Positions 15,259-58,930 are shown, counted from the first letter of the stretch. The stretch is 64,000 bases of DNA from an uncultured Methanomassiliicoccales archaeon (GCA_964580935.1 CAZOLG010000005.1:10988-74987); one strand, 5' to 3'. The notes: generated from the letters alone by a model not told the origin. Numbers and translations are program-made.

Positions 15259-16710
15259 GTGAAGAGAGAAGACGAGACAGAGAATACGCTACAAAGCAGA
15301 GCGTGTAAGGGGCTGATAGGCTCGGTCAGGAGGAGGGCTGAAAAGTTCTCACCGCCGGAAGAATTGGTCGAGCGAGTCCGTATCGATGGGAATCATATGA
15401 GTGCATGTACGAGGAGTCCATTCGAGACCCAGAAGCGTTTTGGGAGAGATATGCGGAGGATGAACTGGACTGGTTCGATCGCTGGGACTCGGTCTTCGAA
15501 TGGGAAAGACAAACATGCGAGTGTGGCTGGTTCAAAAGGGACAAAATCAACGCTGCCTACAATTACGTGGACAGACATGCAGAGGGAAGAAACAGGAACA
15601 AAGCGGCAATCACATGACAGGGAGACAGGGACGATGAGGTGAGGGTGCTTACCTACCACAATCTGCTCAGAAAGGTGTGTCGGATGGCCAACGTCCTGAA
15701 GAGGCACGGGGTGGAGAAAGGAGACAGAGTGTTACTCTATCTACCCATGATCCCTGAGCTGCCAATAGCGATGTTGGCCTGCGCTAGGATCGGGGCAATA
15801 CACAGTGTGGTCTTCGGAGGATTCAACGCTGAGGCCCTGGGCAACGGGATCGTAGACAGCGAGTATTCGGTGCTTATCACCGCTGACGGCGGATACCGGG
15901 GCGGGAAGCTGGTCCCACTGAAGAACATGGCCGACGAGGCAGCGGCCGGGGCGGGGTCATCGTCGAAGATGATAGTGGTCAGGCATGCCGATTGTGGGGT
16001 GAACATGCTAGACAAGAGAGACCACTGGTGGCATGAAGAACGGAAACCGGGGGCCCATGACCTCAAGCCTGGTGCCGCCCTGCGGCCGTTCTTCGGCATC
16101 GAGCCCACCGTGGTCAGGGACGATGGCACAGAGGTTGTGAGCGACGAGGGAGGATATCTACTAATAAAGAAGCCCTGGCCCTCCCTGATGAGGACCATAC
16201 ACGGCGATCATGAAAAGTACAAGGAGACCTACTGGTCCCGCTTCCCGGGCACGTACTTCACCGGGGACGCCGCCCGCCTGGACGAGGAGGGAGACATATG
16301 GTTGCTGGGCAGAGTGGATGACGTGATCAAGGTCTCCGGTCACAGGATAGAGGCCGCAGAGCTAGAGAGTGTGCTTGGCTCGCACCCCGGTGAAGGAGGC
16401 TGCGGTGGTTCCCATACCTCACGATGTCAAAGGAGAAGCGATTCACGCCTACGTTACTCTTAATGTCGGTGTAGAAGAGTCGTCCGAGCTGACCGAGGCG
16501 CTAATCAAATACTTGCGAAAGGTGGTAGGACCGATCGCCACTCCGGAGTCTGTTCAGTTCACTACTGCTCTCCCAAAGACCAGGAGTGGGAAGATAATGA
16601 GGGGGTTGCTCCGAAGGATAGCCTGCGGGCAGTCCGAAGATCTGGGTGACACCACCACCTTAGCCAACCCCTCAGCGGTCTGGGAGCTGGTTGAATTCCG
16701 GGGCGCCTGA
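15259..16710 (+). pseudogene. acs: Decayed AMP-forming acetyl-CoA synthetase (acs) pseudogene
   Basis: ACS-like segments lie in three frame pieces. There is a frameshift near 15385-15395. An in-frame TGA at 15615-15617 sits where ACS has the conserved Trp (AAIT*QGD versus AIIWEGD). About 200 aa are missing around 16035-16060, joining HWWHEE to KPGAALRPFFG and removing the adenylation core. A second frameshift lies at a C/G run near 16385-16392 (SHP|VKEAAVV). Confidence 0.85.
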
Positions 16711-41976: not shown

Positions 41977-43302
41977 TTGGAGAGAAAGAGAGTCATCATA
42001 ATGGGAGCGGCGGGTAGGGATTTTCATAATTTCAATACCTATTTCCGTGATAACCCTCTGTATAATGTCATTGCTTTTACTGCTACCCAGATACCGAATA
42101 TTGAAGGGAGAGAGTACCCCTCCAAACTGGCAGGATATCTGTATCCTAGCGGCATCCCCATCTTTCCAGAGGAGAGACTGCCCGAACTGATCAGGGAGTA
42201 CGAGGTCGATCAGGTGGTCTTCGCCTACAGTGATGTGCCGTACATGGAAGTGATGCATAAGGCCTCTATGATACTCAAGAACAAGGCGGACTTCCGGCTG
42301 ATGGGAAACTCGAGGACCGTTCTGAAGAGTGACGAGCCAGTGATCAGCGTGGGGGCGGTCAGGACAGGCTCTGGGAAGAGCCAGACCACCAGAAAGATCT
42401 GTTCGATACTGAGAGATAAAGGGCTAGACGTGGTAGCCGTCCGCCATCCCATGCCCTACGGCGATCTGGTAAAACAGGCAGTTCAGCGGTTCGCCAGTTA
42501 CGATGACCTGGACAGTCAGGACTGCACCATTGAGGAGAGAGAAGAGTATGAACCGCTCATCGATATGGGGATAGTGGTATACGCGGGCGTCGACTACGAG
42601 AAGATCTTGAGGGAGGCGGAGGAGGAGGCGGACATCATCGTGTGGGATGGTGGGAACAACGACACCCCTTTCTACGAATCGGACCTGCATATCGTGGTGG
42701 TCGATCCCCACAGACCGGGGCATGAGGTGAGTTACCACCCTGGAGAAGTCAATCTCAGGATGGCCGATGTGGTATTGATCAACAAGATACAGACGGCCAA
42801 CAGGAAGGGTATCCTTACAGTCAAGGAGAACATAGTAAAGGTCAATCCCTCGGCCACTGTTATCGAAGCGGCGTCGACCATTTGCGTGGATGATAAAGAT
42901 ATGATCAGGGACAAGCGAGCCCTGGTGGTGGAAGACGGTCCCACGGTCACCCACGGTGGTATGGAGTACGGGGCCGGACTGATAGCCGCTGAGGACTACC
43001 GCGCTTCCGAGATCATAGATCCCCGACCGTTTGCCAAGGGCACGATCGCCAATACTTTTCAGGAATACCCTCACCTGAAGAGGGTGCTTCCCGCCATGGG
43101 GTACGGGGAGAAACAGAGAAGGGAGTTGGAGGAGACAGTGGAAGAGGCAGATGCCGATGTTGTGGTCTCGGGAACCCCTGTGGACCTGCGCAGGGTGATC
43201 GATGTCTCCAAGCCGATAGTCAGAGTTAGGTATGAACTGGAAGAGATCAGTCATCCTAACCTCGAAGAGCTGGTTACCGAGTTCTTAGATCAGAAGTTAT
43301 GA
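41977..43302 (+). CDS. COG2403-type P-loop NTPase (family annotated as predicted GTPase / cyclic 2,3-diphosphoglycerate synthetase-like)
   Basis: 441 aa. The N-terminus is VIIMGAAGRDFHNFN and the P-loop is GAVRTGSGKSQT. The family assignment is from memory and the function is not inferable. Confidence 0.6.
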   Translation: MERKRVIIMGAAGRDFHNFNTYFRDNPLYNVIAFTATQIPNIEGREYPSKLAGYLYPSGIPIFPEERLPELIREYEVDQVVFAYSDVPYMEVMHKASMILKNKADFRLMGNSRTVLKSDEPVISVGAVRTGSGKSQTTRKICSILRDKGLDVVAVRHPMPYGDLVKQAVQRFASYDDLDSQDCTIEEREEYEPLIDMGIVVYAGVDYEKILREAEEEADIIVWDGGNNDTPFYESDLHIVVVDPHRPGHEVSYHPGEVNLRMADVVLINKIQTANRKGILTVKENIVKVNPSATVIEAASTICVDDKDMIRDKRALVVEDGPTVTHGGMEYGAGLIAAEDYRASEIIDPRPFAKGTIANTFQEYPHLKRVLPAMGYGEKQRRELEETVEEADADVVVSGTPVDLRRVIDVSKPIVRVRYELEEISHPNLEELVTEFLDQKL

Positions 43303-43398
43303 TGGAGGGCTTTCCCTCCCTCATTTCACTTCCCATCTTGACATACTTCAGATGTTCCAAAGGATGAAATATGCCCCCAATCATCAATAGCAGGTCAG

Positions 43399-43504
43399 GC
43401 GGGGGTAGCCAAGCTTGGCCAAAGGCGCAGGACTTAAGTTCCCTGCCCGCGGATGAGATATCCTGTCACATAGGAGTCCGAGGGTTCAAATCCCTCCCCC
43501 CGCA
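43399..43504 (+). tRNA. tRNA-Leu(UAA) with a 21-nt canonical (37/38) intron at 43439-43459
   Basis: The acceptor stem is GCGGGGG/CCCCCGC with discriminator A. The T arm is GAGGG-TTCAAAT-CCCTC. It has a long D loop and a 14-nt variable region (class II). The anticodon stem is CAGGA/TCCTG and the anticodon TAA lies at 43435-43437. The intron forms a bulge-helix-bulge: central helix CUUA:UGAG with 3-nt bulges AG^U and AU^A. No CCA is encoded. Confidence 0.85.
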
Positions 43505-43558
43505 CTTTGCCTCTGGTTCAAAGCCTTTATTAATATAAATTCCTAAGGATTGGATAGT

Positions 43559-44113
43559 ATGATTGAGATAGAGAAGGCAGAAGAGATGGTCAGAGAGAGG
43601 GTGGATACCGAAAATTTAAGGAAACACATGTACGCGGTCTCCGCGATTATGAGGAAGCTGGCTGAAAGGCTTGGTGAGGACCCCAAGCTCTGGGAAGTCG
43701 TGGGCTTGCTGCACGATATCGACTACGAGGAGACCAAAGACAAGCCGGAGGAACACGCCAAGAGATCCGCAGAGATTTTGGGACATAGACTACCCGAGGA
43801 GGCTTTAAAAGCGATAAGAGCCCACAACTTCGAATATCTCAATGTGGGGCCTGAAAGCGACTTCGACAACGCCTTGATCGCAGCAGACGCGATTTCAGGC
43901 CTAATAGTGGCTACAGCCCTGGTTATGCCCAACAGCAGACTGGATGAGGCGAGGGTGGAATCTGTGCTCAAGAAGTTTAGCGACTCGTCCTTTGCAAAGA
44001 ATATCGACAGGGACAGAATCCTGTACTGCGAGAAGTTGGGTCTGAGTAAGGAGGAATTCGCCGAAATTTCACTACGGGCCCTCCAGAGAATCCACGATAG
44101 GTTGGGTCTCTGA
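43559..44113 (+). CDS. HD-domain metal-dependent phosphohydrolase
   Basis: About 184 aa with H...LLHDIDYE motifs. ATG 43559 is preferred over the TTG at 43550. Confidence 0.7.
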
Positions 44114-44362
44114 TCTTCAACCTCGGGTTACCTCAATAGCATTGGGAAGGTTTCGGATTGAATGCTTTCACCACATCTTGAGTTTTTATCCAGCTCAAGG
44201 AGGTCTTTCTAGATGACGAATTCACTCACTCATACATATTTGCTGACCATTCCCCTGAGTCTCGAATGGCTCTCACTCGCTGGAGGAGTGAAGTTCTGTT
44301 GATCTCTCGTGATAAATCAATCGTCAAGTTATTAGTATGTTTGATAATCTAGGAATTGAACG

Positions 44363-47121
44363 TTGAAGTCGAATATGTCAAACATCTCCAAGGCCAATGT
44401 CCTATTCGTCGATGATGAACTAGATGTCCTGGAGTTGACCAAGATATTCCTCGAGAAGGAGGTCGAAGGCCTCAATATAGATACTGTGCATTCTGTTGAT
44501 CAGGGCCTTGAGAGACTATCCGAGGGCGACTACGACGCAATTGTGTCTGATTACCAGATGCCTGGTACGGATGGACTCCAGTTCCTGGAGTTAGTACGGG
44601 GTTCTGGCAAAGACGATTGTCCAGGAAATCAAGAGGAACAGGGTGGAGATGAAACTACAGGAAGAACAGTTGAGAAGAGAGGTTCTTCTCGACAATCTTC
44701 CACACATAGCGCTCATTCTAAAGAAAGGTTCCAGGGAAATCATATACTCCAACAAGGCAGCAAGAAGGGGGGGTGCCTCCCCTGGTAAGACATGTTATGA
44801 GACTCTACCGGTAAGAGGAGATCCGTGTCCCTTCTGTCTGGCCCCCGAGCTATGGGAGAGTGGAGAAAGCCGGGAAATAGAAGTGGAATATGAAGGTAGA
44901 CACTACAGGGGGATCTGGGTGCCCTTCTCTGAAGATCTGTATATCCATTACATCTTGGATATTACGGAGATGAAGGCTACCGAGGAAAGGCTGAGAGAAA
45001 GTGAAATGGAATTGAGGGCTATCTTCAATGATCCGGGCGTATTCATCGGAATCCTGGACCTGAATGGAACGCTGCTCGAAGCGAATAAGTCCTCACTGAG
45101 GTTTATCAGTGCTTCCAGATCAGAGGTGGAAGGAAACAAATTCTGGGATACACCATGGTGGACCCATTCCCCCGAGCTGCAGGATAGATTGAAGGAGGCG
45201 ATCGAGAAGGCCTCCGAGGGGGAGATCGTCAGGTTCGAGGCCACACATATCGGCAAAGATGGCGGGCAGATGGCCGTCGACTTCTCCGTGAGACCGGTCA
45301 GAGACGCGGAGGGCAGGGTCAAAGAACTCATCGCTGAGGGCAGGGATATCACTGAGCTGAAACGGACGGAAGAGGAGCTTCGGAGGTCTCAAGAGAGGTA
45401 CAAGGAGTTTGCCGACAAGTCCTCAGATATCATGGTGAGACTCAACCTAAGTGGAGATATTACGTACGTTAGTGGTGGTATAGAGGGCGAAGTTGGATAT
45501 TCCAGTGAGGAGGTACTGGGCAGAAATGTAGGGGAGTTTCTCACCCCCGAATCTTTGGACAAGATGAAGAAGAGGATCTAGAAGAGGAGAGATGGCGTTG
45601 AGGATATGTCCCCTTTCGAGGTGGAGGTCGTCACCGAATCAGGGAATAGGGTGCCCTTCGAACTCTCTACGGATCCGGTCTACGAAGACGGGGAGATCAA
45701 TGAAATACTGGCGGTGGCAAGGAATATTTCCGATTTGAAGGAGAGAGGAGAAATACAGAATCCAGTTCGAGGAGGCCAGAGACGCTATCTTCTTGGCTGA
45801 CGCCGATAGCGGTATCATCGTTGATTGTAACCGGGCTGCAGCGGATCTACTGAGGAGAGAGAGGTCCGAAATAATCGGGAAGCACCAGAGGTATTTACAT
45901 CCCGATGGAGGGAAGGGGGGTTTTCGGAGAGTTTCCGGGAACATCTGGAGAAAAAGTCGGGGGAGGTTCTAGAGTCTCAGGTGATAACCTCGGAGAGAGA
46001 GTTGAAAGATGTTTCCATCAAAGGGACCATTATCGAACTGGACGATGAGAAATTGCTCCATGGCGTATTCAGAGATATAACCGATCAGAAGGAAAGAGAG
46101 AGGGAACTCCGACGAGAGAGAAAGAGGTTCCAGGAGATCTTCAATAATGTGAACGATGCGATATACCTGCATAAATTGACGGATGAAGGTCAATGATGTG
46201 GCGTGCGAGATGTTGGGTTACTCGAGAGAAGAGTTCATGGAGATGTCGCCCGGAGATATAGATTCCTCGGAGATGAGAGACAAGGTCCCCGACATTATGA
46301 AGGAGCTCCACGAAGAAGGAGATCTCAGGTTCGAGATGGTCCACCGGACCAAAGATGGAAGGGATGTCCCAGTAGAGGTTCATTCTCACCTCTTTGAACT
46401 GGAAGAGGAAGAGAGGGTGCTGTCCGTGGCCCGGGATATAACTGAGAGAAAGAGAGCGGAAGAGCGGAAGGAGTTTCTCAATTCACTACTCAAACATGAT
46501 GCCAAGAATAAGGCGGCAGTTATCAGGGGATACCTCGATATTCTCAGAGATTACGAGATGTCTGATCGGGCCGAAGAGTATGTGGAGAAGATCAATGAGA
46601 ACCTCCTGGACGGGATCCAGATAATGGAGAGGATAGGAACCCTCCAGGAGATCGGGGAAGAGCCGATCCAGAATATCGATCTACGTGATATCATTGATGA
46701 CGTAGTCAAGGAAATCGAAGGCAGGGCCGAGCGGGAGGGCATGGAGATCGAAGTCATATGCCCCAAATCGATTTGCAGGGTGAGGGGCGGTCAACTGCTC
46801 AAAGAGTTGTTCACCAACTTGATCCTCAATTCCATCATTCACTCGGGAGGGAACAAACTAAGGATAGAGGGGAGGGAAGGACCGAACACGGTCACCTGCA
46901 CCGTCGAAGATGATGGCTCAGGCATCCCCGGAGAGGTCAAAGACGAGGTCTTTGAAAGGGGATTCAAGGGAGAGAGAAGTCCCGGATCAGGCCTGGGACT
47001 GTTCCTTGCCAAGACGATAGTCGAGTCGTACGGCGGTAGAATTGAGGTGGAGGGGTCAGGACTGGGCGGTGCGAAATTTTCAGTTCGACTTGAGAAAGCC
47101 CAGGAAGAGGTCGGTGATTAG
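44363..47121 (+). pseudogene. Disrupted hybrid sensor kinase (receiver, four or more PAS domains, histidine kinase)
   Basis: The domains are colinear across 5 track ORFs. The receiver is truncated by an out-of-frame deletion near 44606-44612, so the ...FTGKGRE...LQKG segment seen in the 39354 paralog is missing. An in-frame TAG at 45579-45581 lies inside a PAS domain. Frameshifts lie near 45741-45755, at the G6/T4 run 45915-45924, and near 46180-46190. The terminal kinase core is intact (KHDAKNK; DDGSGIP...GLGLFL). Confidence 0.8.
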
Positions 47122-47240
47122 ACCCTAGCAGATAATCAGACGGCAAACCGAGATATCACGCGCCATCAATTTTCAAAGTACATGCCTTGCGAGGTCTATC
47201 GGACATCTAATCCCGTAGTGCCCAAGATACATTCCCCCTC

Positions 47241-47831
47241 TCAGTGAATGATCTCCGCGTACTCCTCGAAAGGCATTATAGATATGTGGGGCATGAGGTC
47301 CTTGAACCCCTGCACTATCTCTTCGAGCTTGTGAAAATCCTCGTGAGACTTGCGGTCATTCCAGTAGGTGATCATCACATACTTCGTAGGCTTTATCGGC
47401 ACATTCTCGTATTCTCCCCTGAGCATGGAGCCACCCCAGGCGACATTGGTAGTCCTGACCACCTTGGTCCCCACGAAGCCCTCTTTGTCCATGGTCAGCT
47501 GGCACAGGTCCTCCATCATCTCTTCCACCTCCTCTTCATGTCCTGGCTTCACAGACAGATAATTGATAGCGGTGACCAGCGGTTTCCTGACGTATTCGTA
47601 ACCGTCAAGCGCGTGGACCGGTATTCTGGTGACATTGATACCTCTCTCTTTCAAGAAGGTCTCGGCCATCTTCGATCGCTTTTCCCGCGGACCACAGTAG
47701 ACCTTCACTTCCCTGTCTTCAAGGAAGTCTAGATAGAACTCCAGGTCCCATACTGGTATGTTCAACGAGCCTTCAATATGGTTCATATAATACTCTTCTC
47801 TAGTCTTGACATCCACGATCAATTCGGTCAT
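47241..47831 (-). CDS. Rhodanese-like domain fused to an ABM/Dabb-like domain
   Basis: The likely start is ATG 47831 (MTELIVDVKTREEY...). The active-site loop YCGPREKRS has CX5R spacing. The C-terminal ~95 aa resemble an antibiotic-biosynthesis-monooxygenase-type fold, which is a weak call. Confidence 0.62.
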   Translation of the reverse strand: MTELIVDVKTREEYYMNHIEGSLNIPVWDLEFYLDFLEDREVKVYCGPREKRSKMAETFLKERGINVTRIPVHALDGYEYVRKPLVTAINYLSVKPGHEEEVEEMMEDLCQLTMDKEGFVGTKVVRTTNVAWGGSMLRGEYENVPIKPTKYVMITYWNDRKSHEDFHKLEEIVQGFKDLMPHISIMPFEEYAEIIH

Positions 47832-47963
47832 TGTGTGTTCTATTAGATTATGGAATATAAGAAAATATTCCAACATTGAACTGACCGCTTCAAGATCTTG
47901 TGAGCCTATCGTAGTCAAAGGAAGCCTTACTAAGACTCTCCAATATCAACGGCAAGTCAATAA

Positions 47964-49310
47964 TCAGGCCCTCTTGAGGTAAACGTCGAACCTGGTACCA
48001 CCCAACTCCGAATCCCCAACTTCAACTCTCCCTCCATAGGCTTCCAAGAGCTTGCTGACCAGAAACATCCCGAGGCCAGATCCTCGTTCCCGGTCGGTGG
48101 TGAATTCCCTCTGGAAGATCTTTTTCCTATGTTCATCTGGGATTCCGCGTCCGTCATCCTCTATGGTGCACACTACTTCTTCATCATGCACCTCCTTTGA
48201 AAGTCTGATCCTAGTTCCGCCGGAGTGCCGAATAGAGTTCTCAACGATATTGGTGAAAACCCTGTCCAGCAAAGGTCCACCCTTTACCATGCACTTTTCA
48301 TGAGAGCACTCGTCGATAATCTTCATTCCCTCATCTTCCGCTCGCGGCCTCCATCTCTTCAGACCTCTGTTTACAATAGAACTGATGTCCACCGGGTCAA
48401 TCCTCTCCTCGTACGCTCTCTCCAAGGTGCTGACCTTCTCAATGATCTCCATCCCCTCTTCGGCCCCCTCTTCAGCCTTTGCGAGGTACCTTTTCTCTTT
48501 TTCCAATAGGCCATAATCTTCGATCAAATCGAGATAACCCAGGACAATCTGGATCTTGTTTCTCAGGTCATGCCTCAAGAGAGAACGCAATAATTCCTCT
48601 CGCTCCTGGGCCTCCTTCCGCTCGGAGATGTCCCTTACCGTTGCCTGCAAGAAACTCTCATCGCCGATATCCGCTCTACTCAACAGAACCGTAGCCGGAA
48701 ACTCTGTTCCATCGAGGCTTTGATGGGTCCATTCAACAAATCTGCTGCCCCTTTCCATTGCCTCCTCGATCAATTCCTTCGCCCTGATCTCGGATAGCTG
48801 ACCATCCAGCTGCCTTTCCGGAGCATACTCCCAGGGCTTCCCTGAACAGAATTATTCCTCGTCTTCGGCCTTGAACATCTCCAAAGCTGCAGGATTGGCC
48901 GCCGTGAACTCCCATTCCGGAGGCTCCAGTATCATGATCGCATCCCGTGAGGTTTCGAAGAGCTTACGAAACCTTTGCTCCGCCTTCTTTCTCTCCGAAA
49001 TATCTCGAGCGACACTCAGGATCGCGGTCTTGCCCTGATAGGTTATCAGACTGGAGCTGATCTCCACAGGTATCTTCTCTCCTTTTTTCGTGACATGTAC
49101 TGTCTCGAAGACCTGTATCTCATCCTCTTCCATACTCCCGATGAGGGCATTGATAGTTTCTGCACTTAATCCAGCATCGATTTCCTGCGGTCCCATGGAG
49201 AGCAGTTCATCCCTGGTATAGCCTAAGATTTCGACAGCGGCATCATCTCCATCGTTACATGCACCCATACATCTCTTCGAGTCTTTGGTATTTGATACCT
49301 CTCTTGACAC
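47964..49310 (-). pseudogene. PAS-PAS histidine kinase interrupted by an in-frame TAA and N-terminally truncated
   Basis: The two track ORFs are in the same frame. TAA at 48852-48854 lies inside a PAS domain (...FKAEDEE*FCSGKPWEY...). The first PAS starts mid-domain. The kinase core is intact (LRHDLRNK; DDGRGIP). Confidence 0.68.
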
Positions 49311-49637
49311 CGCTTTGTTATGTGATCTCCTTCACCATTTTCGCGTCTCCTTCGACCGGTTATTCAGTCATTTCGAGTATGAGATATCCGCCTGCACCCT
49401 CTCTGTCAGTCTCAGCGGTACTATTTCTTATGGAAACGGATAATAATACTTCCTACTCAAGAATCAGATTGTGACTTTCACTTTCTACCAGCCAACGAAT
49501 GAATGATTTCGAGAGAATGATATCGATAGAAGATTACTGGGCAACGGGGGTAATAGGAAAGGGGACATGAAAAGAATCCGTGTACGATGAGAAGGAATAT
49601 TATCGGGGAAGGCACTTGATGATAGACGGAGACACAA

Positions 49638-50501
49638 ATGGACTTGACAGAATTCAAGAAATGGATTGGAAGCGAAGTTCAAACCTACGTAATGCAGGAC
49701 GAAGGGAACAGGCTCGGTAGACTGGACGGTAGCCCCATATTCGAAGAGCCCGTTGTTGGTTTCGTCTCAGGGAGCGACCCCATTTTTCTGCAGCTGAAAG
49801 AAGTCATAGGAAGATTCCATCTCACTCCCCAGGAAGTAATGGAGTACGGAGCGAACAAGAAAGGTGTCCCCATATCGGATAACAAGGAGGCGGGTGTGAT
49901 TTCGTATATCCTGCCCATCTCCGCCGAGACCAGACGGGAGAACGCCGATATGGAAAAGAGACCCTCGGAGCGGTGGTCTCATACCCGCCTCTTTGGAGAG
50001 GAGTTCAACAAGAATCTCTCCAGACACCTCGTGTCTCTTGTAGAAGATCGAGGGTATCTTGCCGTAGCACCGGGGACTGAAGATTCGCTCTTCAAAACGC
50101 TCGATGATGAGAGAGTGGGCAAGACCTCCAACTGGTCCCAGCGCCACATCGCCTACGCTGCGGGTTTGGGTACATTCGGGCTGTCCGATGGACTCATCAC
50201 AGCCAGAGGGAAGGCACATAGAGCGGGGAGTGTGGTGGTGAACTACCCTCTGGAATCCCCTGAAGAGAGAGCGGGTCTCCATGACTACTGCCTTTTCTAC
50301 AGGAACAAGAGCTGCAGAGCATGTGCAGAGAGATGTCCAGTGGACGCCATTACCGGAGAGGGGCACGACAAGGAAAAGTGTGCCAAATTTGTTTTCGGTC
50401 AGGAGGATTTCGTGATCAAGAACTACGGCATCGATATCTACGGATGTGGTCTATGTCAGACTGGTGTCCCCTGCGAATCCGGGATTCCGTTAGACGATTG
50501 A
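49638..50501 (+). CDS. QueG/reductive-dehalogenase-superfamily Fe-S protein (epoxyqueuosine-reductase-like)
   Basis: 287 aa. The block WSQRHIAYAAGLGTFGLSDGLITARGKAHRAGSVVV parallels the QueG core (S.R.AA..AGLG..GKN.LLIT...GS...LG). It has C-terminal Cys clusters CRACAERCP and CGLCQTGVPC. Confidence 0.65.
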   Translation: MDLTEFKKWIGSEVQTYVMQDEGNRLGRLDGSPIFEEPVVGFVSGSDPIFLQLKEVIGRFHLTPQEVMEYGANKKGVPISDNKEAGVISYILPISAETRRENADMEKRPSERWSHTRLFGEEFNKNLSRHLVSLVEDRGYLAVAPGTEDSLFKTLDDERVGKTSNWSQRHIAYAAGLGTFGLSDGLITARGKAHRAGSVVVNYPLESPEERAGLHDYCLFYRNKSCRACAERCPVDAITGEGHDKEKCAKFVFGQEDFVIKNYGIDIYGCGLCQTGVPCESGIPLDD

Positions 50502-50687
50502 CAGCTGTTAACGGCTTCTGAAACATCCCTTCAGGGAGCTTTAGATAACCCATCTTGATACATGCTTTGGTCGGTAGCCGTTGGCATGGTGGAAAATGAC
50601 TAGCCGGAGGTCGGACTTCCTTGATGTGTACCATAATTCATACAATCTTCAGATAGTTGGATAGGTCGTTGCAAGTTTTCCCATCAT

Positions 50688-50706
50688 TATGCAATATTGT
50701 TGCATA
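50688..50706. promoter_or_regulatory. Inverted repeat TATGCAA-N5-TTGCATA upstream of the UroD-like gene
   Basis: Read directly from the sequence. A further TTGCAA copy lies at about 50669-50674. A TATA-like AAAATTATATAC lies at about 50758-50769, ~35 nt before ATG 50803. Confidence 0.25.
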
Positions 50707-50802
50707 TTAACACCCTTAATTGAGTAAGATGAAACATCGTTTCGAACCGCTGATAATAAAAATTATATACGCGCTACGATACTCAAGTCATGGGGATTAA
50801 TA

Positions 50803-51921
50803 ATGGGCTATGAGGAAAAATTTCCTGATGTAGATCCTGACTGGCATGCGAATGCCACTCAGCGATTCGCGAGTCCCTTTGTCGACATGCCCCATGACAG
50901 GATCAGTGTAGATCCGATCATGCTTTCTCATGCTGCAGTTGCATGTGGGTATACGATTAGGGACTTTTATGAAAAGCCTGAACTGGGAATCCACTGTGTC
51001 GGTTACATGTCCAACCTGTACGACCTTCTCCCAGTAACCCATTGGTTCTTTTCGTTGCCATGGGTGACTGAATTGGGCGTCACACTGGAGTATAAAGACA
51101 CACTACCGCCAGTATCCACCGGACCTGTGATTTCAGAGCCCGGAGAGGTGGATGATATAGAGGTTCCAGGAGTGGAAGATCTCAAGAAGGAATGGACACT
51201 TCCGATGTTCTACCGGATTTACGATTACGTAGCAGAGAACCTTCCGCAAACCTTGGTGCCGATTTCCTATGGGTTCGACCTAGTCGGTGCGGCGGCGGAG
51301 CTCTGTGGAGTCGAACAATTCATAATGTGGACCTTCACGGAACCAGAACAGTCAATGAAGCTAGTGCAGAAGTACACTGATACTTCAGTAAACGGGGCCA
51401 TCGGACTGGCCGACAAGTATGGTATGGCCATGCTGATTGTCGGATCCGTTCTGGCCAATAACGACATCTTCTCCGATGACGATGTCGAGAAGTACTCCGC
51501 CAAGATGATGAGATACTATGTGGACAAGTCGTTCAGAGGGGGCGCTGGTCCGCAGCTGTTCTACCACCTTTGTGGAAACCACGAGACGGACTACAAGAGG
51601 TTCAAAGAAAACCTTATATGGTCGCCTTTCACCGTGTTCCACGTCGGATATAAGGGCAGCAAAGTGTTCCCATCCAGTCTCCTGAAGGAGGAGTTCGGAG
51701 ATATGGCCACCATCATGGGATCAGTGGACACCAAACTGATGATAAATGCTAACCCGAAGGCTGTGTATGATCAGTCCAAGGAGCAGCTCATCGGCGGTAG
51801 AGACAGTCCCAAGGGATACATCTTGGGTAACTCGTGCGAATGTCCGCCATATACACATCCGGGTAACTTGCTAGCAATGACCAGAGCTGCGAGGGACTAC
51901 GGTACATACGGAGAATGGTGA
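50803..51921 (+). CDS. Uroporphyrinogen-decarboxylase-family (MtaA/CmuA-like) methyltransferase
   Basis: 372 aa with a URO-D-like TIM barrel. A MtaA-type Zn motif His-x-Cys (YHLCGNH) and a later Cys (NSCECPP) are present. Confidence 0.75.
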   Translation: MGYEEKFPDVDPDWHANATQRFASPFVDMPHDRISVDPIMLSHAAVACGYTIRDFYEKPELGIHCVGYMSNLYDLLPVTHWFFSLPWVTELGVTLEYKDTLPPVSTGPVISEPGEVDDIEVPGVEDLKKEWTLPMFYRIYDYVAENLPQTLVPISYGFDLVGAAAELCGVEQFIMWTFTEPEQSMKLVQKYTDTSVNGAIGLADKYGMAMLIVGSVLANNDIFSDDDVEKYSAKMMRYYVDKSFRGGAGPQLFYHLCGNHETDYKRFKENLIWSPFTVFHVGYKGSKVFPSSLLKEEFGDMATIMGSVDTKLMINANPKAVYDQSKEQLIGGRDSPKGYILGNSCECPPYTHPGNLLAMTRAARDYGTYGEW

Positions 51922-51931
51922 GGTGAGAAAA

Positions 51932-52384
51932 ATGGATATTAAAATTCCGGAAGAGGCCGAAGAGATCCTCGGCGAGAGGGGTATAAAGGCGAAAGATGTG
52001 AAGGACATCATCAGTACAGCCGAGTCTACTGGAAAGAAGCTCACCCACGAGGAAGAACCTAAGATCCTGGCCAAGAAGGTATTGGGCGACACCACAGTCT
52101 ACGCGGAGTACCATATGGATGGAAATGCCGCCGTGGTGGACACCGCCTACGCCCACAGGATTGCGCTTGGCGACACGGTCAACGAGTTTGGCTCTGCTGG
52201 CTGGAGATGTGAGAACTGTCGGGAGAAGGCCGTTGAGGGTCATGTTGAGATGTCCTACATGGACGTGACCAGGAACGGTCCGGCGATCATATGTCCTAAG
52301 TGCCAAGATTCGTGGGCTGAAGAATACTTGGCCACAGGCACAATGGCTGCAGTCGAAGGCCTGTTCGAGAAGAAGAGGGCTTAA
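51932..52384 (+). CDS. Hypothetical Zn-ribbon protein coupled to the UroD-like gene
   Basis: About 150 aa with CENC...CPKC. ATG 51932 lies 10 nt after the UroD-like stop, behind GGTGAGGTGA. Confidence 0.5.
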   Translation: MDIKIPEEAEEILGERGIKAKDVKDIISTAESTGKKLTHEEEPKILAKKVLGDTTVYAEYHMDGNAAVVDTAYAHRIALGDTVNEFGSAGWRCENCREKAVEGHVEMSYMDVTRNGPAIICPKCQDSWAEEYLATGTMAAVEGLFEKKRA

Positions 52385-52390
52385 ACACAT

Positions 52391-52430
52391 TGGCCGCTCC
52401 GTCGGCCATTAGTTTTTAATTTTTATTTTT
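52391..52430 (+). terminator. Hairpin followed by three oligo-T tracts
   Basis: The stem is TGGCCG-CTCCGT-CGGCCA (52391-52408). It is followed by T5, T5 and T5 runs (52413-52430), immediately after the Zn-ribbon gene. Confidence 0.5.
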
Positions 52431-52523: not shown

Positions 52524-53894
52524 GTGGATCAGAAGATCGGAGAAACGGACAGTCTCTGTCCCGAGTGCCTGCAGACAGTCCCAGCGGAGAAAATAGCTGA
52601 AGGAGAGAAAATCTACCTGGTGAAGACCTGTCCAGAACACGGGACCTTCCGTTCCCTTATTTGGAGAGGGGTTGACGACTATAGAGATCTGAACAGGTAT
52701 GCGGGTGAACCCGTAAAGCCGGGCGATATATCCGTGCACAACTCAGGGAACTGCCCCCAGATATGCGGCCTGTGTGAAGATCACAAACAGCACACATGTC
52801 TGGTGGTGCTTGAGGTGACTAACGGCTGTAATCTGAACTGCCCCATATGCTTTGCCAGATCAAACCAAGGTTACAGGTTCCACCCCACCCTGGAGGAGAT
52901 CGAAGGCATGTGGAGGACGGTGGTGGAAAAGGTCGATTCTCCCATATGCGTCCAGATCAGCGGAGGAGAACCCACCATAAGGAGTGATCTACCGGAGATA
53001 ATCAGGATGGGCAAGGAGATGGGCGTAGACTATATCGAGTTGAACACCAACGGCGTCAAGCTCGCAGAGGATTCCGACTACGTTCGCAAGCTCAAAGAAT
53101 CGGGTGTGGATTCCCTTTACTTTTCGTTCGATGGTGTTACCCCTGAAGTATACGAGGAGACCTGTGGAGAGGACCTGCTGGAGGTCAAGAGGAAGGCGTT
53201 GGACAATTGTGAGGAGGCGGAGATGGGGGTGACGCTGGTCACCGTGGTCTCCCCGAAATTGAACCTGGACCAGGTGGGAGACATCATAAGGTTCGCGGCC
53301 GACAGGATACCCACGGTGAAGGGTGTACACTTCCAGCCGATCAGCTTCTTCGGCAGGTATCCGACCGCGCCTGGAGACGACGACAGGATGCTGATTCCCG
53401 ATCTGATCGAGGAGATCGAGGAGCAGACAGATGGTCAGATCAGGGCGGAGAACTTCGTTCCCACTTCCTGCGCCAACGTCCACTGCGACTCCAAATCGTT
53501 GTCGGTCAAGATGGAGGACGGTTCTATATTCCCCATCACCAGCAGGGCACTGGGTCCACCTGAAGACACTTCTGAGATAGCGAAGAAGACCAGGGGGGAG
53601 ATCTCAGACCTGTGGAGGTTCGTTGATGAAGTGCTCTCCGACGCCGATACGGAGGGGGACGACACCTGGATGGGTTTCCTTCAAAGGGCGAAGTCCCAGT
53701 ATTTAACAATTTCAATGATGGCGTTTCAGGACGTATGGAACGTGGAGACCGACAGGCTACAGCGATGCTGCATACACACCGTCACTCCGGACGGCAGGCT
53801 CATACCGTTCTGCCTGTTCAATATTACATCGTCTGGAGGAGACACCCTGTATAGACACCAGATATTCAGCAAATACGCAAGAGAAGGAGATTAG
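52524..53894 (+). CDS. Radical SAM protein with N-terminal Zn-ribbon (COG1964 type, the family containing MJ0619 tetraether lipid synthase Tes/GDGT-MAS)
   Basis: 456 aa. It has an N-terminal CPEC...CPEHG. The radical SAM cluster motif is CNLNCPICF. It also has the auxiliary Cys run CPQICGLCEDH. The link to Tes is by remembered family architecture only. Confidence 0.6.
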   Translation: MDQKIGETDSLCPECLQTVPAEKIAEGEKIYLVKTCPEHGTFRSLIWRGVDDYRDLNRYAGEPVKPGDISVHNSGNCPQICGLCEDHKQHTCLVVLEVTNGCNLNCPICFARSNQGYRFHPTLEEIEGMWRTVVEKVDSPICVQISGGEPTIRSDLPEIIRMGKEMGVDYIELNTNGVKLAEDSDYVRKLKESGVDSLYFSFDGVTPEVYEETCGEDLLEVKRKALDNCEEAEMGVTLVTVVSPKLNLDQVGDIIRFAADRIPTVKGVHFQPISFFGRYPTAPGDDDRMLIPDLIEEIEEQTDGQIRAENFVPTSCANVHCDSKSLSVKMEDGSIFPITSRALGPPEDTSEIAKKTRGEISDLWRFVDEVLSDADTEGDDTWMGFLQRAKSQYLTISMMAFQDVWNVETDRLQRCCIHTVTPDGRLIPFCLFNITSSGGDTLYRHQIFSKYAREGD

Positions 53895-53902
53895 TGAAAA
53901 GA

Positions 53903-54208
53903 CTAGCGGGAGGGCTTCTTGCCCACACTCTGGTGATAATCGTCGATTATCTTGTTCATATAGTTGGCGAGTACCTTCTGCTTCGCGTTATTGTCCACCC
54001 ACATCGAAGTCAGCGGGAATTCATGGTCACAGAACGGACACCTTGCGAACTTGCAGTCCTTGGTGGCGAACCGGCAGCCCTTGCAGGCAATTGCCCTTGA
54101 CTGGAAGAGGCTGAAGTCCTTACCGCACCTCGGGCAGGTGATCTGCTTGGTAGTCTTCAACAATTTGTGTGAGATTCCCATCTGTCTCATGTGAGGGGTC
54201 AAGACCAT
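53903..54208 (-). CDS. Hypothetical multi-CxxC Zn-ribbon protein
   Basis: 101 aa with CPRC, CKGC and CPFC pairs. I recognise no family. Confidence 0.45.
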   Translation of the reverse strand: MVLTPHMRQMGISHKLLKTTKQITCPRCGKDFSLFQSRAIACKGCRFATKDCKFARCPFCDHEFPLTSMWVDNNAKQKVLANYMNKIIDDYHQSVGKKPSR

Positions 54209-54293: not shown

Positions 54294-55064
54294 TCAGATG
54301 TCAGATTTGGTGGTCTCCATTCCTGGCGGCAATACCACCGGCCAGTTCAGAAAGGGTGGATAGGGGTATGAAGCGGCGTCCTCCGTTGAGTACAGACCAT
54401 CCAACAGTCTGTCCAAGCCCGCTGGCGATAGGGTGGTAATCATCTCCTCTTCCTTGGGCATGCCGAATAGCCGGTCTCCCATACAAGGGATATCGATATC
54501 GAAGTCCTTACCGTTGAGTACCCTGGAGATGGAGGCGCACAGAGAGACCTGACCTGTTATTCTCGTCTCTACTGACCTGCCCGTATGGTAGACGTGAGCG
54601 ATGATCAGTCTCAGCGCCTGAGCGGGGTTCACGTACATCACGATCACATCGGGTTCCACGGGCATCAGGCCAAAAGGAGCCATCAGCAGTGCCTTGTACC
54701 TGGTCTCATGATCACCTATCATCCCGATGGATTCATGAAGTTCCCTTGCCGCCGATCTGTCCTTTGTGAACTGTTCATAGAGTAGCCCGTTACGCAGCCG
54801 GTCAGGCGACCTGATCAATCCCACGGAGGCCGCTCCCCACACACATTTCATGCCCTCGCGGGAGGCGCCCACCACCCCCTCCCCTCCATAATGTCTGGCA
54901 AGTGCTACCATATGACAGATCGAGCTCTTTCTAAGCAACCTTGCCTCAGGGAAATCTAACAGGTCTTTCGCCTCTGCCAGGAACTTGATTCCTACCGGAT
55001 TCGTGCTCAGATCCAGTTTGGATCTTATGGTCTCTGCAGTCTCCTCCCAATCGTGCTGGCCCAT
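54294..55064 (-). CDS. DUF169 family protein
   Basis: 256 aa. The NPVGIKF block and the overall pattern are typical of DUF169. Confidence 0.72.
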   Translation of the reverse strand: MGQHDWEETAETIRSKLDLSTNPVGIKFLAEAKDLLDFPEARLLRKSSICHMVALARHYGGEGVVGASREGMKCVWGAASVGLIRSPDRLRNGLLYEQFTKDRSAARELHESIGMIGDHETRYKALLMAPFGLMPVEPDVIVMYVNPAQALRLIIAHVYHTGRSVETRITGQVSLCASISRVLNGKDFDIDIPCMGDRLFGMPKEEEMITTLSPAGLDRLLDGLYSTEDAASYPYPPFLNWPVVLPPGMETTKSDI

Positions 55065-55323
55065 ATTCCGAAGATGGGTGCAGAAATATAACTAAATTGC
55101 GAGTATTGTTTCCTTTGAACGCGGCATTCACCATGAGAAAGAAATATACAACATGCTTCCGTTTCCTGAACCTGTGAAACCCTTACGGAAACTGAAGTTG
55201 GCCCTGGCCAGGAGGAAGTTGTCTTCCACGAAAATAGATGGGGGGGTGGACCACCCGCTCGAAGCATGGATCCACGGACAGGTGATAGACGAGTTCAATT
55301 CCTCGACTGAGCTCGGGAAGAAG

Positions 55324-56622
55324 ATGGGCGATAGGCGCCCGGACGATGTGCAGAGATCGGACATTGAACAGTATCAGCTATTCCGCTTCAGGAGAATGCT
55401 TCAGTACGTCAAAGAGAACAGTGTTTTTTACAGGAAGCTGTTCGAGGACGGGGTATCGCCACAGGATATCAGGACCTATGAAGACCTAGAGAAAGTACCT
55501 CTGACCGAACCGGCGGAACTGTCCGAGAACCCGTACCTCTTCCTGTGCGTTTCACAGCGGGAGATCAAGCGCCCTTTCACCACTTCCGGCACCTCAGGAC
55601 AGCGCAAGAGGATATTCTTCACCAGTGAGGATCTGCTTCACATCATCGACTCCATCTCTGCCGCTCTGAAGACGGTGGGTATGACTGATGAGGACACGCT
55701 CCAGATCATGTTTCCCACCATTGCCTCCTGGGACCCGGGGTACATGCTGAAGGGGGCATGCGAGGTGGTCGGTTTCTCATCTGTGGTCCAGGATACCATG
55801 GATGTGGGCGAACAGATCAGGACCATGGAAGAGAACGGTACTTCTATGCTGATCGGTCTCACCTCTTTCATCTACAGGATCACCATGCTCGCCAGAAAGT
55901 CCTATGATCTGAGGACCCTGGGCATTAAGAAGATCATCCTTTCCGCCGAACCGCTGTCTGAAGCCATGAGGCGGGAGATAGAATCAGCATGGGGGTGCAA
56001 GGCACTCAGTCAATACGGACTGACCGAGATGGGTTTGGCCAACGCCATCGAGTGTGATGTCCAGCAGGGACTGCATGTCAACGAGGCGGATTTCCTGGTG
56101 GAGGTAATCGACCCCGAGACCGGTAAACATGTTGAAGAGGGTAAGGAGGGGGAACTGGTGTTTACCTCCCTGACCGCACAGGGGACACCCCTGATCAGGT
56201 ATAGAACCTACGATCTGTCCCGACTCATTTCGCCCCCATGCGAGTGCGGGTTCCAGACCATCTCCAAGGTGGGCAAAATTAACGGTAGGCTGGATATGCA
56301 GACCAAGATAGGTCTCGGAGAGAAAGTATATCCTCTGCTGTTTGACGAAGCTCTGTTGAGCGTCCCCGGAGTACTGAACTATCGCATCATCATCGACAAG
56401 GCTGGGTACAAAGACCGCCTAAGATTCAGGGTCGAAGTGATGGAGAAAAGGGAGGGGCAGGAAGAGGAGCTGAAGGAAAAGCTGTGCTCGCTGGAAGAGG
56501 TCCGATCGGGGGTGGAAAGAGACCTGCTGGAACCTCCAGAAGTCGAGATCGTTGAACTGGGGACACTGGAGTACACGCCCAAGTCACAGACCATTGTGGA
56601 TAATCGAGAGATATTCGATTGA
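55324..56622 (+). CDS. Phenylacetate-CoA ligase / coenzyme F390 synthetase-family adenylating enzyme (PaaK-like)
   Basis: About 432 aa from ATG 55324; the track ORF starts at 55153. It has FTTSGTSGQRKRIFFT and PaaK-like N- and C-domains. Confidence 0.78.
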   Translation: MGDRRPDDVQRSDIEQYQLFRFRRMLQYVKENSVFYRKLFEDGVSPQDIRTYEDLEKVPLTEPAELSENPYLFLCVSQREIKRPFTTSGTSGQRKRIFFTSEDLLHIIDSISAALKTVGMTDEDTLQIMFPTIASWDPGYMLKGACEVVGFSSVVQDTMDVGEQIRTMEENGTSMLIGLTSFIYRITMLARKSYDLRTLGIKKIILSAEPLSEAMRREIESAWGCKALSQYGLTEMGLANAIECDVQQGLHVNEADFLVEVIDPETGKHVEEGKEGELVFTSLTAQGTPLIRYRTYDLSRLISPPCECGFQTISKVGKINGRLDMQTKIGLGEKVYPLLFDEALLSVPGVLNYRIIIDKAGYKDRLRFRVEVMEKREGQEEELKEKLCSLEEVRSGVERDLLEPPEVEIVELGTLEYTPKSQTIVDNREIFD

Positions 56623-57302: not shown

Positions 57303-58034
57303 TCAGCTCTTGATGGCCTCAATAATCCTTCTCAGCATATTGGAGTTGTTGTCTTCCACCACGTTTCCGGTGACGATTATATCCGCACCGGCGCCGACGA
57401 TCTCCGATGCCTGTTCCGGCTTCCTGATACCCCCGCCCACCACCAGAGGTATGGATAACGCCTCTTTCATGGCCCTGATCATGGGGCAAGAAACGGGCTC
57501 CGGTGCTCCACTGCCCGCTTCCAGATACACCAGATCCATCCCGAACAGTTCGGTGGCCAGTCCGTAGGCGATGGCCTTCTCGATGTCGTCCCTCTTCAGC
57601 ACATCGGCCTGCCCGACCTCTCCCACTTTCATACCTGGCTCCACGATCAGGTATCCCATGGAGATGGTCTCCAGGCCGAGTCTGCGTATCGCAGTTGCCC
57701 CGGTCACCTGTTCACCTATAACATGATCAATATTCCTCGAATTGAGCATGCTCATGAAGTAAACGGCATCGCAGTGCCCTGAGATAGCATGCGCCCCAGA
57801 GGGGAAGTAGATGACGGGCAGCTCAGTCCTCTTCTTTATGGAGAGGACCGTCTCATCGAGATTTTCCTGAGTGATACCGGTGGATCCTCCAACCATGATC
57901 GCATCCGTTCCCAGCATGTCAACATCCTGAGCGATAGTCCCCGCCCCCTCCGGGCTCTGATTGTCGGGATCGATCAACGTCATGTGAAGAGGCTCTGCGC
58001 TAAGCCTCTCTTCCAGATACTCTTTGACTTTCAT
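57303..58034 (-). CDS. Geranylgeranylglyceryl phosphate synthase (GGGPS, PcrB family)
   Basis: ATG 58034 lies behind GGGAGG and forms an ATGA overlap with the upstream gene's stop. The blocks IMVGGSTG, YLEAGSGA and VVGGGIR are typical of GGGPS. Confidence 0.9.
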   Translation of the reverse strand: MKVKEYLEERLSAEPLHMTLIDPDNQSPEGAGTIAQDVDMLGTDAIMVGGSTGITQENLDETVLSIKKRTELPVIYFPSGAHAISGHCDAVYFMSMLNSRNIDHVIGEQVTGATAIRRLGLETISMGYLIVEPGMKVGEVGQADVLKRDDIEKAIAYGLATELFGMDLVYLEAGSGAPEPVSCPMIRAMKEALSIPLVVGGGIRKPEQASEIVGAGADIIVTGNVVEDNNSNMLRRIIEAIKS

Positions 58035-58930
58035 ATTATACCTCCCATGAGGAATGCCACCAAGGCGACGGCCATTGCGTTCTTGGCCCATCTCTGTCCC
58101 TTCTCCGGACTTTCAAAGTGAATATAGGCAGAATATATAAAGATTGCATCCGCCACCAGGACCAGTATGAGGTAGCCCAGCCCCAGCTGATCGTCCACGT
58201 AGGGAATGAAACTGAGGCCCACGGCCAGCAGGAATGAGAGGGAGCCGATAACACCCGCCCTTCTCCTGCCTATACTCATGGGGAGGGTGTTGCGATCGAA
58301 ATCTGCCTCCATGTCCTCAATATCCTTGAGTACCTCCCTCCCTAGGGTGGCCAGAAAAGCCATGGAGGCGATGGTCGCCGTACTGTAGATGTCCCCCACC
58401 ACCGCGCCTCCCAGCAGGAAGAGCCCTCCCGTCAGCCACGCGATCATCAGGTTTCCCCCCAGAGGTTTCCTCTTCAGGTTCACCTCATAGGCGAGCATGA
58501 TGGCTATCGCCGAGGTAACGATCAGTATGGAGATCCAGTCCAGGAACAGGGTGAGGAAGAAGGCGACGGAGAACATGCCGGCGGAGAGGGACAGCACTGC
58601 CCCGGGGGAGAGTTGTCCTGAAGGTATGGGCCTCTCAGGGTGCGCCCTCTTGTCCACCTCCCGATCCATGTAGTCGTTGAGCGAATTTCCAGCTGCGATG
58701 AACAGGAAGACAACTGCGGACGCCACGGCCAGCTCGAAACCGTAGTCGGTGAGTGAGAAGTCCACGGCTATGAATGCGCCCAGAAGGAGACCGATCACCC
58801 CCATCACACAGTTCCCGATCCTGAACAGACGGATGTAACTATTCACAATGGGAGATTTGACTGATGTCTTATTACATTTTTTAAGGCGGGAAAACCATTG
58901 GAGAATCCGGAATTCGCTGCTCCCCCTCAC
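58031..58930 (-). CDS. UbiA-family prenyltransferase, probable digeranylgeranylglyceryl phosphate synthase
   Basis: 299 aa and polytopic. It has the Asp-rich motifs NSLNDYMDREVD and DIEDMEAD. It is translationally coupled to GGGPS. Confidence 0.82.
   Translation of the reverse strand: MRGSSEFRILQWFSRLKKCNKTSVKSPIVNSYIRLFRIGNCVMGVIGLLLGAFIAVDFSLTDYGFELAVASAVVFLFIAAGNSLNDYMDREVDKRAHPERPIPSGQLSPGAVLSLSAGMFSVAFFLTLFLDWISILIVTSAIAIMLAYEVNLKRKPLGGNLMIAWLTGGLFLLGGAVVGDIYSTATIASMAFLATLGREVLKDIEDMEADFDRNTLPMSIGRRRAGVIGSLSFLLAVGLSFIPYVDDQLGLGYLILVLVADAIFIYSAYIHFESPEKGQRWAKNAMAVALVAFLMGGII

Follow-up and report, generated by a model that had tools for sequence, protein, structure and literature searches.

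A stand-alone QueG/RdhA-like core gene beside a UroD-like/DVU_1557-like pair at the head of an archaeal TrsS cassette

The locus and its boundaries

There are three open reading frames (ORFs) between positions 49638 and 52384 of a 64,000-nucleotide stretch of DNA (hereafter the window) from an uncultured Methanomassiliicoccales archaeon (GCA_964580935.1, CAZOLG010000005.1:10988-74987), and all three lie on the plus strand. The first (49638-50501) encodes a 287-amino-acid (aa) protein that carries a stand-alone cobalamin/[4Fe-4S] core of the QueG/RdhA superfamily. It is followed by the gene for a 372-aa Zn protein of the UroD/MtaA family (50803-51921) and by a short ORF (51923-52384) encoding a DVU_1557-like partner, which has 153 aa from a GTG start, or 150 aa with a 10-nucleotide spacer if counted from the ATG at 51932. 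A first-pass annotation, made from the sequence without database searches, had placed the three ORFs correctly and had proposed that they form a single corrinoid-dependent module. We consider it probable that two unrelated things stand side by side at this locus, namely a stand-alone QueG/RdhA core and a heterodimer of the UroD-like and DVU_1557-like proteins that opens an archaeal TrsS cassette.

The source genome is 1.87 Mb in size and 99.86% complete. It encodes McrA, RadA and GGGP synthase, and the named relatives of its proteins belong to the Methanomassiliicoccales. Positions 50218-51110 are bridged without differences by a contig from a public DNA sequencing run, which may be the source sample itself. 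Because this contig spans the junction between the QueG-like and UroD-like genes, the junction is not an artefact of the window's assembly alone.

The intergenic region between these two genes (50502-50802) is 301 nucleotides long and includes an AT-rich, TATA-like stretch about 45 nucleotides before the UroD-like start codon. Comparison with relatives places a synteny break exactly here, and the region is the boundary between lineage-specific DNA and a conserved cassette. The lineage-specific stretch occupies 41977-50501, with a CODH/ACS cluster on one side and the TrsS cassette on the other. Two relatives have only about 3 kb between the UroD-like gene and the CODH/ACS cluster upstream of it, and therefore the window's DNA between about 41.9 and 50.5 kb is considered specific to the lineage. 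In addition to the QueG-like gene, it includes several genes for PAS/histidine kinases, one for an HD protein, another for a rhodanese-ABM fusion, and two ORFs without a family. The fusion protein (47241-47918, minus strand) has 225 aa, combines a rhodanese-like domain with one resembling antibiotic biosynthesis monooxygenases (ABM), and exhibits faint similarity to sulfur oxygenase/reductase.

Just past the stop codon of the DVU_1557-like gene, a hairpin of six base pairs, five of them G-C (52391-52408), is followed by runs of T, such that the whole element covers 52391-52425 on the plus strand. The first-pass annotation had also indicated a hairpin and oligo-T tract at this site. The region holds no excess of terminator-like sites, with six counted compared to 4.0 +/- 2.1 in shuffled sequences.

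The QueG-like protein and its neighbourhood

The AlphaFold2 model of the 287-aa protein has a pLDDT of 93.3, and its residues 2-282 superimpose on residues 2-253 of QueG from B. subtilis (5t8y) with Z 16.0 and a root-mean-square deviation (rmsd) of 3.4 over 205 aligned residues. Residues 138-410 of PceA give Z 14.7, NpRdhA gives Z 14.2 and MMACHC gives Z 8-9, and Foldseek results are concordant with these alignments. Sequence similarity to the same families is slight. The protein scores 30 bits with the QueG model TIGR00276 (cut-off 200) and 26 bits with the reductive dehalogenase (RDH) model TIGR02486 (cut-off 160.35), in both cases over residues 161-283 only, and the matches to PDB sequences have E values of about 1e-4 for QueG and 2e-3 for PceA-type proteins.

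Eight cysteines (C218, C226, C229, C233, C248, C270, C273 and C279) are invariant among 48 aligned homologues, as are R169 and an AGLGTFG stretch. These residues, together with the fold, bear out the earlier assignment of the protein to the QueG/RdhA superfamily with two Cys clusters. In the HMMER alignment with QueG, for which the offset to the crystal-construct numbering is inferred, R169 aligns with Arg141 and the variable K162 lies at the position of Asp134. Excerpts of PMC5175355 describe Arg141 as shielding the lower corrin face, Asp134 as the proposed catalytic acid, and Leu257-Leu385 of the B. subtilis enzyme as an RNA-binding HEAT-like domain. Similarly, excerpts of PMC4646009 describe an Asp-Tyr-His motif and the catalytic Asp (Asp130 in S. 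thermophilus) as strictly conserved in QueG. There is no DYH in the 287-aa sequence or in the consensus of its family. The cobalamin-binding residues, to which the first-pass annotation had pointed as a test, can be judged in part: a PDB profile search with the family alignment gave no extension into the corrinoid-binding domain, such that the invariant Arg141 equivalent is the sole corrin contact scored and the others fall outside the alignment.

Of 8000 candidates scored in a word-index search, at least 7038 are relatives of this protein at E <= 0.001. The best 120 are 55-80% identical to it, and several of them are in records of Lokiarchaeia, Promethearchaeota or Freyarchaeota. Many relatives are labelled epoxyqueuosine reductase by the JGI and NCBI pipelines, and in the ESM Atlas the look-alike clusters, mostly from Thermodesulfobacteriota, are automatically named putative epoxyqueuosine reductase or ferredoxin. 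These pipeline names, along with the fact that QueG is the top fold match, would favour a working archaeal epoxyqueuosine reductase, but we regard this as extremely improbable. The protein stops at the end of the ferredoxin domain and therefore has no equivalent of the RNA-binding domain found at 257-385 in QueG, the Asp-Tyr-His motif is missing, a lysine occupies the position of the catalytic Asp134, and the score with TIGR00276 falls far below its cut-off. Archaea make archaeosine and are not known to make queuosine, which also counts against this role. Judged from its sequence and predicted structure, the 287-aa protein is a minimal class-III cobalamin/Fe-S core that is neither QueG nor a typical RdhA, and it is probably a cytoplasmic corrinoid-dependent reductase of a small substrate. 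Thus, many archaeal and bacterial proteins appear to carry the name epoxyqueuosine reductase while lacking the parts needed for that job.

The first-pass annotation had proposed that this reductase, the UroD-like methyltransferase and the small zinc-ribbon protein form one unit for corrinoid-dependent demethylation or methyl transfer. The proposal is attractive in that the QueG-like and UroD-like genes share a strand and are only 301 nucleotides apart, that both families use or handle corrinoids, and that the genome is rich in corrinoid proteins. However, the neighbourhood is not conserved, an outcome that the first-pass annotation itself had named as refuting the module. Among 201 genomes sampled for the class, source genome included, the source genome alone has a strong match to the QueG-like gene, leaving none in the 200 others; one further genome carries a protein 36% identical to the C-terminal part. 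The gene is absent from all 13 UroD-like loci of relatives (seven orthologous and six paralogous), and from all 78 TrsS loci (63 archaeal and 15 bacterial) recovered in a scan of one genome per species.

A corresponding result is obtained when the comparison starts from the QueG-like gene. There are 80 metagenome loci with relatives of this gene, 70 of which had a QueG-like ORF, and at a threshold of E <= 1e-20 none of the 70 carries relatives of 13 other window proteins, the UroD-like, DVU_1557-like and TrsS proteins included. No conserved partner emerges among the 26 closest loci, where each neighbouring family is present in at most four. Some URO-D ORF is found within 8 kb of the QueG-like gene in 12 of the 80 loci, which speaks for a shared unit, but nine of these represent a single lineage whose URO-D gene, located two genes upstream, is not an orthologue of the cassette gene (29% identity over 78 residues). 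With the synteny break falling right between the two genes in the window, a single functional unit is very unlikely. The QueG-like gene is an unrelated neighbour of the cassette, and this removes a tempting but wrong operon model.

The nine loci just mentioned (L142, L145, L146, L148, L149, L152, L157, L159 and L186) are syntenic with one another. Their QueG-like proteins are 43-46% identical to that of the window, and the gene order is URO-D-family gene, EamA transporter, QueG-like gene, FrhB-like Fe-S protein and pyruvate:ferredoxin oxidoreductase subunits.

The UroD-like pair and the TrsS cassette

The 372-aa protein matches the Pfam family URO-D (PF01208) with 95.2 bits (cut-off 23.9), and its three NCBIfam matches at E <= 0.01 are all of the MtaA/CmuA type. 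Residues H255, C257 and C345 are invariant in two alignments of 41 and 32 sequences, and in five MtaA-type paralogues from the same genome the HxCG...GC motif falls at the corresponding positions. In MtaA, the His-x-Cys...Cys residues are the Zn ligands. The structure model (pLDDT 89.6) finds its best match in MtaA of M. mazei (4ay8), with Z 32.0, an rmsd of 2.7 over 326 residues and 18% identity. The presence of a URO-D protein with an MtaA-type zinc site some 300 nucleotides downstream of the QueG-like gene had been noted in the first-pass annotation and is upheld by these data.

The URO-D name of the Pfam family, and the Z of 29.3 over 331 residues that the model gives with human UROD, leave room for a tetrapyrrole decarboxylase or another tetrapyrrole-modifying, HemE-like enzyme. 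This is quite unlikely, because no HemE model is among the NCBIfam matches, the MtaA Zn ligands are invariant, and MtaA is the top structural match, with 18% identity compared to 13-14% for UROD. Thus, as far as sequence and model can indicate, the protein is MtaA-type and not HemE, in keeping with the earlier expectation that it would fall outside the HemE group.

The 153-aa partner is composed of two modules. The first, residues 2-82, resembles the C-terminal part of NF045663 (diclust_near_Sec). The second, residues 93-151, is a DVU_1557/DUF7479 domain that scores 63 bits with Pfam DUF7479 (cut-off 27) and 47.1 with NF045645 (cut-off 60). Four cysteines are arranged as C96-x2-C99 and C124-x2-C127. 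All four are lost in 13 of 32 orthologues and one is lost in three more; because the complete set is kept in only 16 of the 32, the cysteines do not constitute a conserved site for redox chemistry or Zn. The positions that are conserved are R117, P120, E133, E134 and a C-terminal EGLFEKKRA tail or helix. Loci whose partner lacks cysteines are L029, L032, L044-L054, L058, L068, L069, L083 and L084.

A complex of the two proteins is predicted with ipSAE 0.84 (0.86, 0.84 and 0.84 in separate runs), compared to 0.00 for the best of three controls. Of 157 solved complexes 116 attain the ipSAE mark applied, as do 2 of 215 mismatched pairs, although these counts are rough in that the calibration was made with different alignments. 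At least 98% of contacts are common to the runs, and the partner has a pLDDT of at least 91. The predicted interface involves residues 86-152 of the partner, which correspond to the DVU_1557 domain, and residues 20-29, 208, 237-250, 269-277, 301-302 and 337 of the barrel. In the secondary structure of the model these barrel residues precede beta strands and thus belong to the N-terminal barrel face. The models therefore predict a heterodimer in which the partner would sit on the side of the barrel opposite to the Zn site.

Tight coupling of the small Cys protein to the UroD-like gene had been recognized in the first-pass annotation, and the two genes are indeed adjacent. What had escaped that annotation is that the pair belongs with the TrsS cassette located directly downstream. 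The cassette continues with a radical SAM protein (52524-53894, plus strand) that has an N-terminal HMPTM-type zinc ribbon and scores 531.5 bits with the TrsS model NF045646 (cut-off 490). This is TrsS in its Cys form, and its relatives are named TrsS in their records. Next are a 101-aa zinc-ribbon-like protein (53903-54208, minus strand), with weak Pfam zinc-ribbon hints and representatives in 60 of the 63 archaeal loci, and a DUF169 protein (54294-55064, minus strand; PF02596, 143 bits) found in 35 of the 63. The last member is a PaaK-like, AMP-dependent ligase of the DVU_1553 type (55153-56622, plus strand), which scores 297.2 bits with NF045666 (cut-off 300) and is present in 53 of the 63 archaeal and 14 of the 15 bacterial loci. 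Thus, the archaeal order is UroD-like gene, DVU_1557-like gene, TrsS, small Zn-ribbon protein, DUF169 protein and DVU_1553 AMP ligase.

There are only eight genomes among the 201 of the class that carry an orthologue of the UroD-like gene, and TrsS is found above its cut-off in exactly those eight. The cassette is present in 8 of the 27 genomes listed for the order, and its gene order, with DUF169 as an optional member, is kept in all seven relatives. On a wider scale, the UroD-like gene is present in 57 of the 63 archaeal TrsS loci and the DVU_1557-like gene in the same 57. In 51 loci the two genes lie next to each other on the same strand, separated by 1-11 nucleotides or overlapping. The pair is also found in Hadarchaeum, Nitrososphaeria and Methanomethylicia, where the remaining gene order is shuffled. 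Five of the six archaeal loci that lack the pair end at a contig edge where it would be expected.

Two records carry a bacterial name together with the archaeal cassette and GGGP synthase: L050 (Eggerthellaceae bacterium) and L054 (Anaerovoracaceae bacterium), the latter with DGGGP synthase as well. These contigs are probably archaeal DNA that was binned into bacterial genomes.

Bacterial TrsS loci are organized differently. None of the 15 has a URO-D-family ORF, and 11 include an ArsM-like class-I methyltransferase of the DVU_1556 type, which is located directly upstream of TrsS in 10. No DVU_1556 methyltransferase is found above cut-off in the source genome, and the 63 archaeal loci yield one weak match, 9 kb off. 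Thus, the two methyltransferase types are mutually exclusive between archaeal and bacterial loci. The core of TrsS, ligase and DVU_1557 recurs in the 15 bacterial loci, with Desulfosporosinus, Dehalococcoidia, Acidobacteria and Syntrophobacteraceae among the hosts. In Desulfosporosinus nitroreducens it is accompanied by genes for a molybdenum aldehyde oxidoreductase, an XdhC-like factor and a MocA-like transferase. NCBIfam credits the families of the TrsS neighbourhood to Haft and Tolstoy 2025 (mSystems), and TrsS appears as a table row in PMC13188914. The neighbourhood comprises NF045645 (DVU_1557), NF045646 (TrsS), NF045663, NF045665, NF045666 (DVU_1553), NF045667 (DVU_1556), NF045669 (DVU_1555) and NF045664 (XdhC-related).

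Two functional links were considered and rejected. The models NF045668 and NF045664 (XdhC-related) have no match in the 99.86%-complete source genome, and this rules out an association with a Mop-type aldehyde oxidoreductase in the source archaeon. A link to methanogenesis or F430 is disfavoured by the lack of a McrA match in the five cassette genomes from outside the Methanomassiliicoccales (0/5, in genomes whose completeness is not established) and by the restriction of the cassette to 8 of the 27 genomes of the order.

These distributions suggest that the UroD-like protein and its partner most likely constitute the methyl-transfer step of the TrsS pathway. Perhaps the UroD-like subunit carries out the step that is performed in bacterial cassettes by the ArsM-like S-adenosylmethionine (SAM) methyltransferase. 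Its Zn would activate a thiol- or selenol-type acceptor in the manner of MtaA, and the methyl group would probably come from a methyl-corrinoid protein encoded elsewhere in the genome. The DVU_1557-domain adaptor, docked opposite the Zn site, may link the UroD-like enzyme to TrsS. A bolder possibility, which we hold to be doubtful, is that archaea rebuilt the TrsS pathway on corrinoid-type chemistry, wherein the MtaA-like enzyme and its adaptor replace the ArsM-like enzyme, and the methyl-corrinoid pool methylates the same sulfur, selenium or metalloid metabolite or cofactor.

Another possibility is that the cassette modifies archaeal membrane lipids, with TrsS acting like its paralogue Tes in changing the backbone or chain and the UroD-like enzyme adding a methyl group. 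TrsS, the closest paralogue of Tes (tetraether synthase), scores 411.5 bits on the Tes model, and there is a GGGP synthase gene just downstream in 41 of the 63 archaeal loci and a DGGGP synthase gene in 36. Moreover, glycerol-methylated tetraethers (BDGTs) occur in Methanomassiliicoccales. The available part of 10.1101/2025.10.20.683597 includes BDGTs among the variants of glycerol dialkyl glycerol tetraethers (GDGTs) and names no enzyme for them there. However, the same core is found in bacteria, where its neighbours are a molybdenum aldehyde oxidoreductase or Hdr-like genes, the adjacency to GGGP synthase is missing from the Hadarchaeum, Nitrososphaeria and Methanomethylicia loci, the source genome has a separate Tes-like gene on its contig C1, and most of the genomes listed for the order (19 of 27) do without the cassette. 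A lipid role is therefore unlikely, and assignment of the pair to a methyl-transfer step of the TrsS pathway is preferred.

Several observations weigh against this assignment or against the separation of the two neighbours. The 372-aa protein scores far under the cut-offs of the MtaA models (53.6 of 244 for NF004889, 39.7 of 400 for NF040654 and 35.1 of 235.4 for TIGR01463). A search for a cognate corrinoid protein, as recommended in the first-pass annotation, located none on the contig that carries the cassette (C5). The genome has eight URO-D genes, and the seven others (contigs C1, C2 and C4) are each within about 3 kb of a gene for a B12-binding domain; they are presumably methyltransferase systems of a methyl-reducing methanogen. 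The cassette gene alone has no such gene within this distance, and therefore the corrinoid methyl donor is an assumption. The preservation of the four partner cysteines in only half of the orthologues is likewise unfavourable, and the heterodimer is a prediction. In one locus with full 10-kb flanks (L057, Candidatus Methanarcanum), TrsS, the Zn-ribbon protein and the ligase are present and the pair is absent. The replacement of the class-I methyltransferase is deduced solely from mutually exclusive presence, and the roles suggested for all cassette members are putative. Finally, the QueG-like gene resembles its neighbours in composition (GC 0.527 compared to 0.521 for the window; GC3 0.604), such that base composition gives no signal of a recent transfer, and the two genes, being on the same strand and 301 nucleotides apart, may be used together locally in the source genome.

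What is new here comprises the co-occurrence counts, the apparent swap of an MtaA-like for an ArsM-like enzyme, the loss of cysteines from half of the partner proteins, the prediction of a heterodimer and the independence of the QueG-like gene. The apparent swap suggests that a soft nucleophile is methylated at one step of the pathway. If the bolder possibility of a corrinoid-based pathway is true, it would put the MtaA fold to a new use, beyond the activation of methanogenic substrates, which would extend to archaea without a McrA match (none in five genomes). The placement of an MtaA-like enzyme and a predicted small partner within the widespread TrsS cassette also provides a testable pair.

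Some further features were observed in the window and among the TrsS loci. The window's GGGP and DGGGP synthase genes are at 57303-58930. An ORF of 274 aa (15639-16463, plus strand) covers only positions 22-149 of the 384 in the AMP-binding enzyme profile, corresponding to the N-terminal third, and may be a truncated or split gene. There are two tandem TrsS paralogues in L085, L087, L088 and L095 (Dehalococcoidia/Chloroflexota and Peptostreptococcaceae), and both score above cut-off in L085. The copies in L085, a Dehalococcoidia metagenome-assembled genome, adjoin HdrA2/MvhD-like and sulfhydrogenase-like genes.

Comparison with known systems

The 287-aa protein shares with QueG (B. subtilis 5D08 and 5T8Y; S. 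thermophilus 5D6S) a nitroreductase-like corrinoid domain and a ferredoxin domain for two [4Fe-4S] clusters, and all eight cysteines and the equivalent of Arg141 are found in both. In contrast to QueG, it lacks the HEAT-like tRNA-binding domain, such that its end aligns to QueG residue 253. It also lacks the Asp-Tyr-His motif and does not conserve the position of Asp134, and a five-residue insertion distinguishes the first cluster motifs of the two proteins.

The core also aligns to that of the RDHs PceA (4UQU), the menaquinol-linked complex (8Q4H) and NpRdhA (4RAS), with Z 14.0-14.7 over about 210 residues, and the AGLG motif region aligns in sequence within the stretch covered by the alignment (residues 161-283). 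In PceA the catalytic pair located over the corrin is Tyr246/Arg305. An N-terminal region of about 140 residues in PceA has no counterpart, and residue 1 of the model corresponds to PceA residue 138. Respiratory RdhA proteins are defined by an N-terminal export signal and by a partner gene for a membrane anchor, whereas the 287-aa protein starts at the core and its neighbouring families recur in at most 4 of 26 close loci. CblC/MMACHC has the same corrinoid-binding fold, but the similarity is much weaker (Z 8-9) and MMACHC has no ferredoxin domain.

The 372-aa protein has the TIM-barrel URO-D fold and the His-x-Cys...Cys motif in common with MtaA of M. mazei (4AY7 and 4AY8). It differs from this enzyme by its low identity (18%), by the absence of a nearby corrinoid-protein gene, by its dedicated small partner and by its setting in a radical-SAM cassette.

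The gene cluster of the window unites several elements of the TrsS neighbourhood defined in NCBIfam, namely TrsS, which scores above its cut-off, a PaaK-like ligase and a DVU_1557-type domain, which both score below their NCBIfam cut-offs, and the C-terminal module of NF045663. The archaeal form does without the big flavo/Fe-S oxidoreductase, DVU_1555, the MocA-like transferase, the XdhC-like factor and the aldehyde oxidoreductase. In the bacterial cassette the methyltransferase is of the class-I DVU_1556 type, whereas in archaea an MtaA-type URO-D protein stands in its place. The archaeal form also fuses the NF045663 tail to DVU_1557, and adds the 101-aa Zn-ribbon protein and DUF169.

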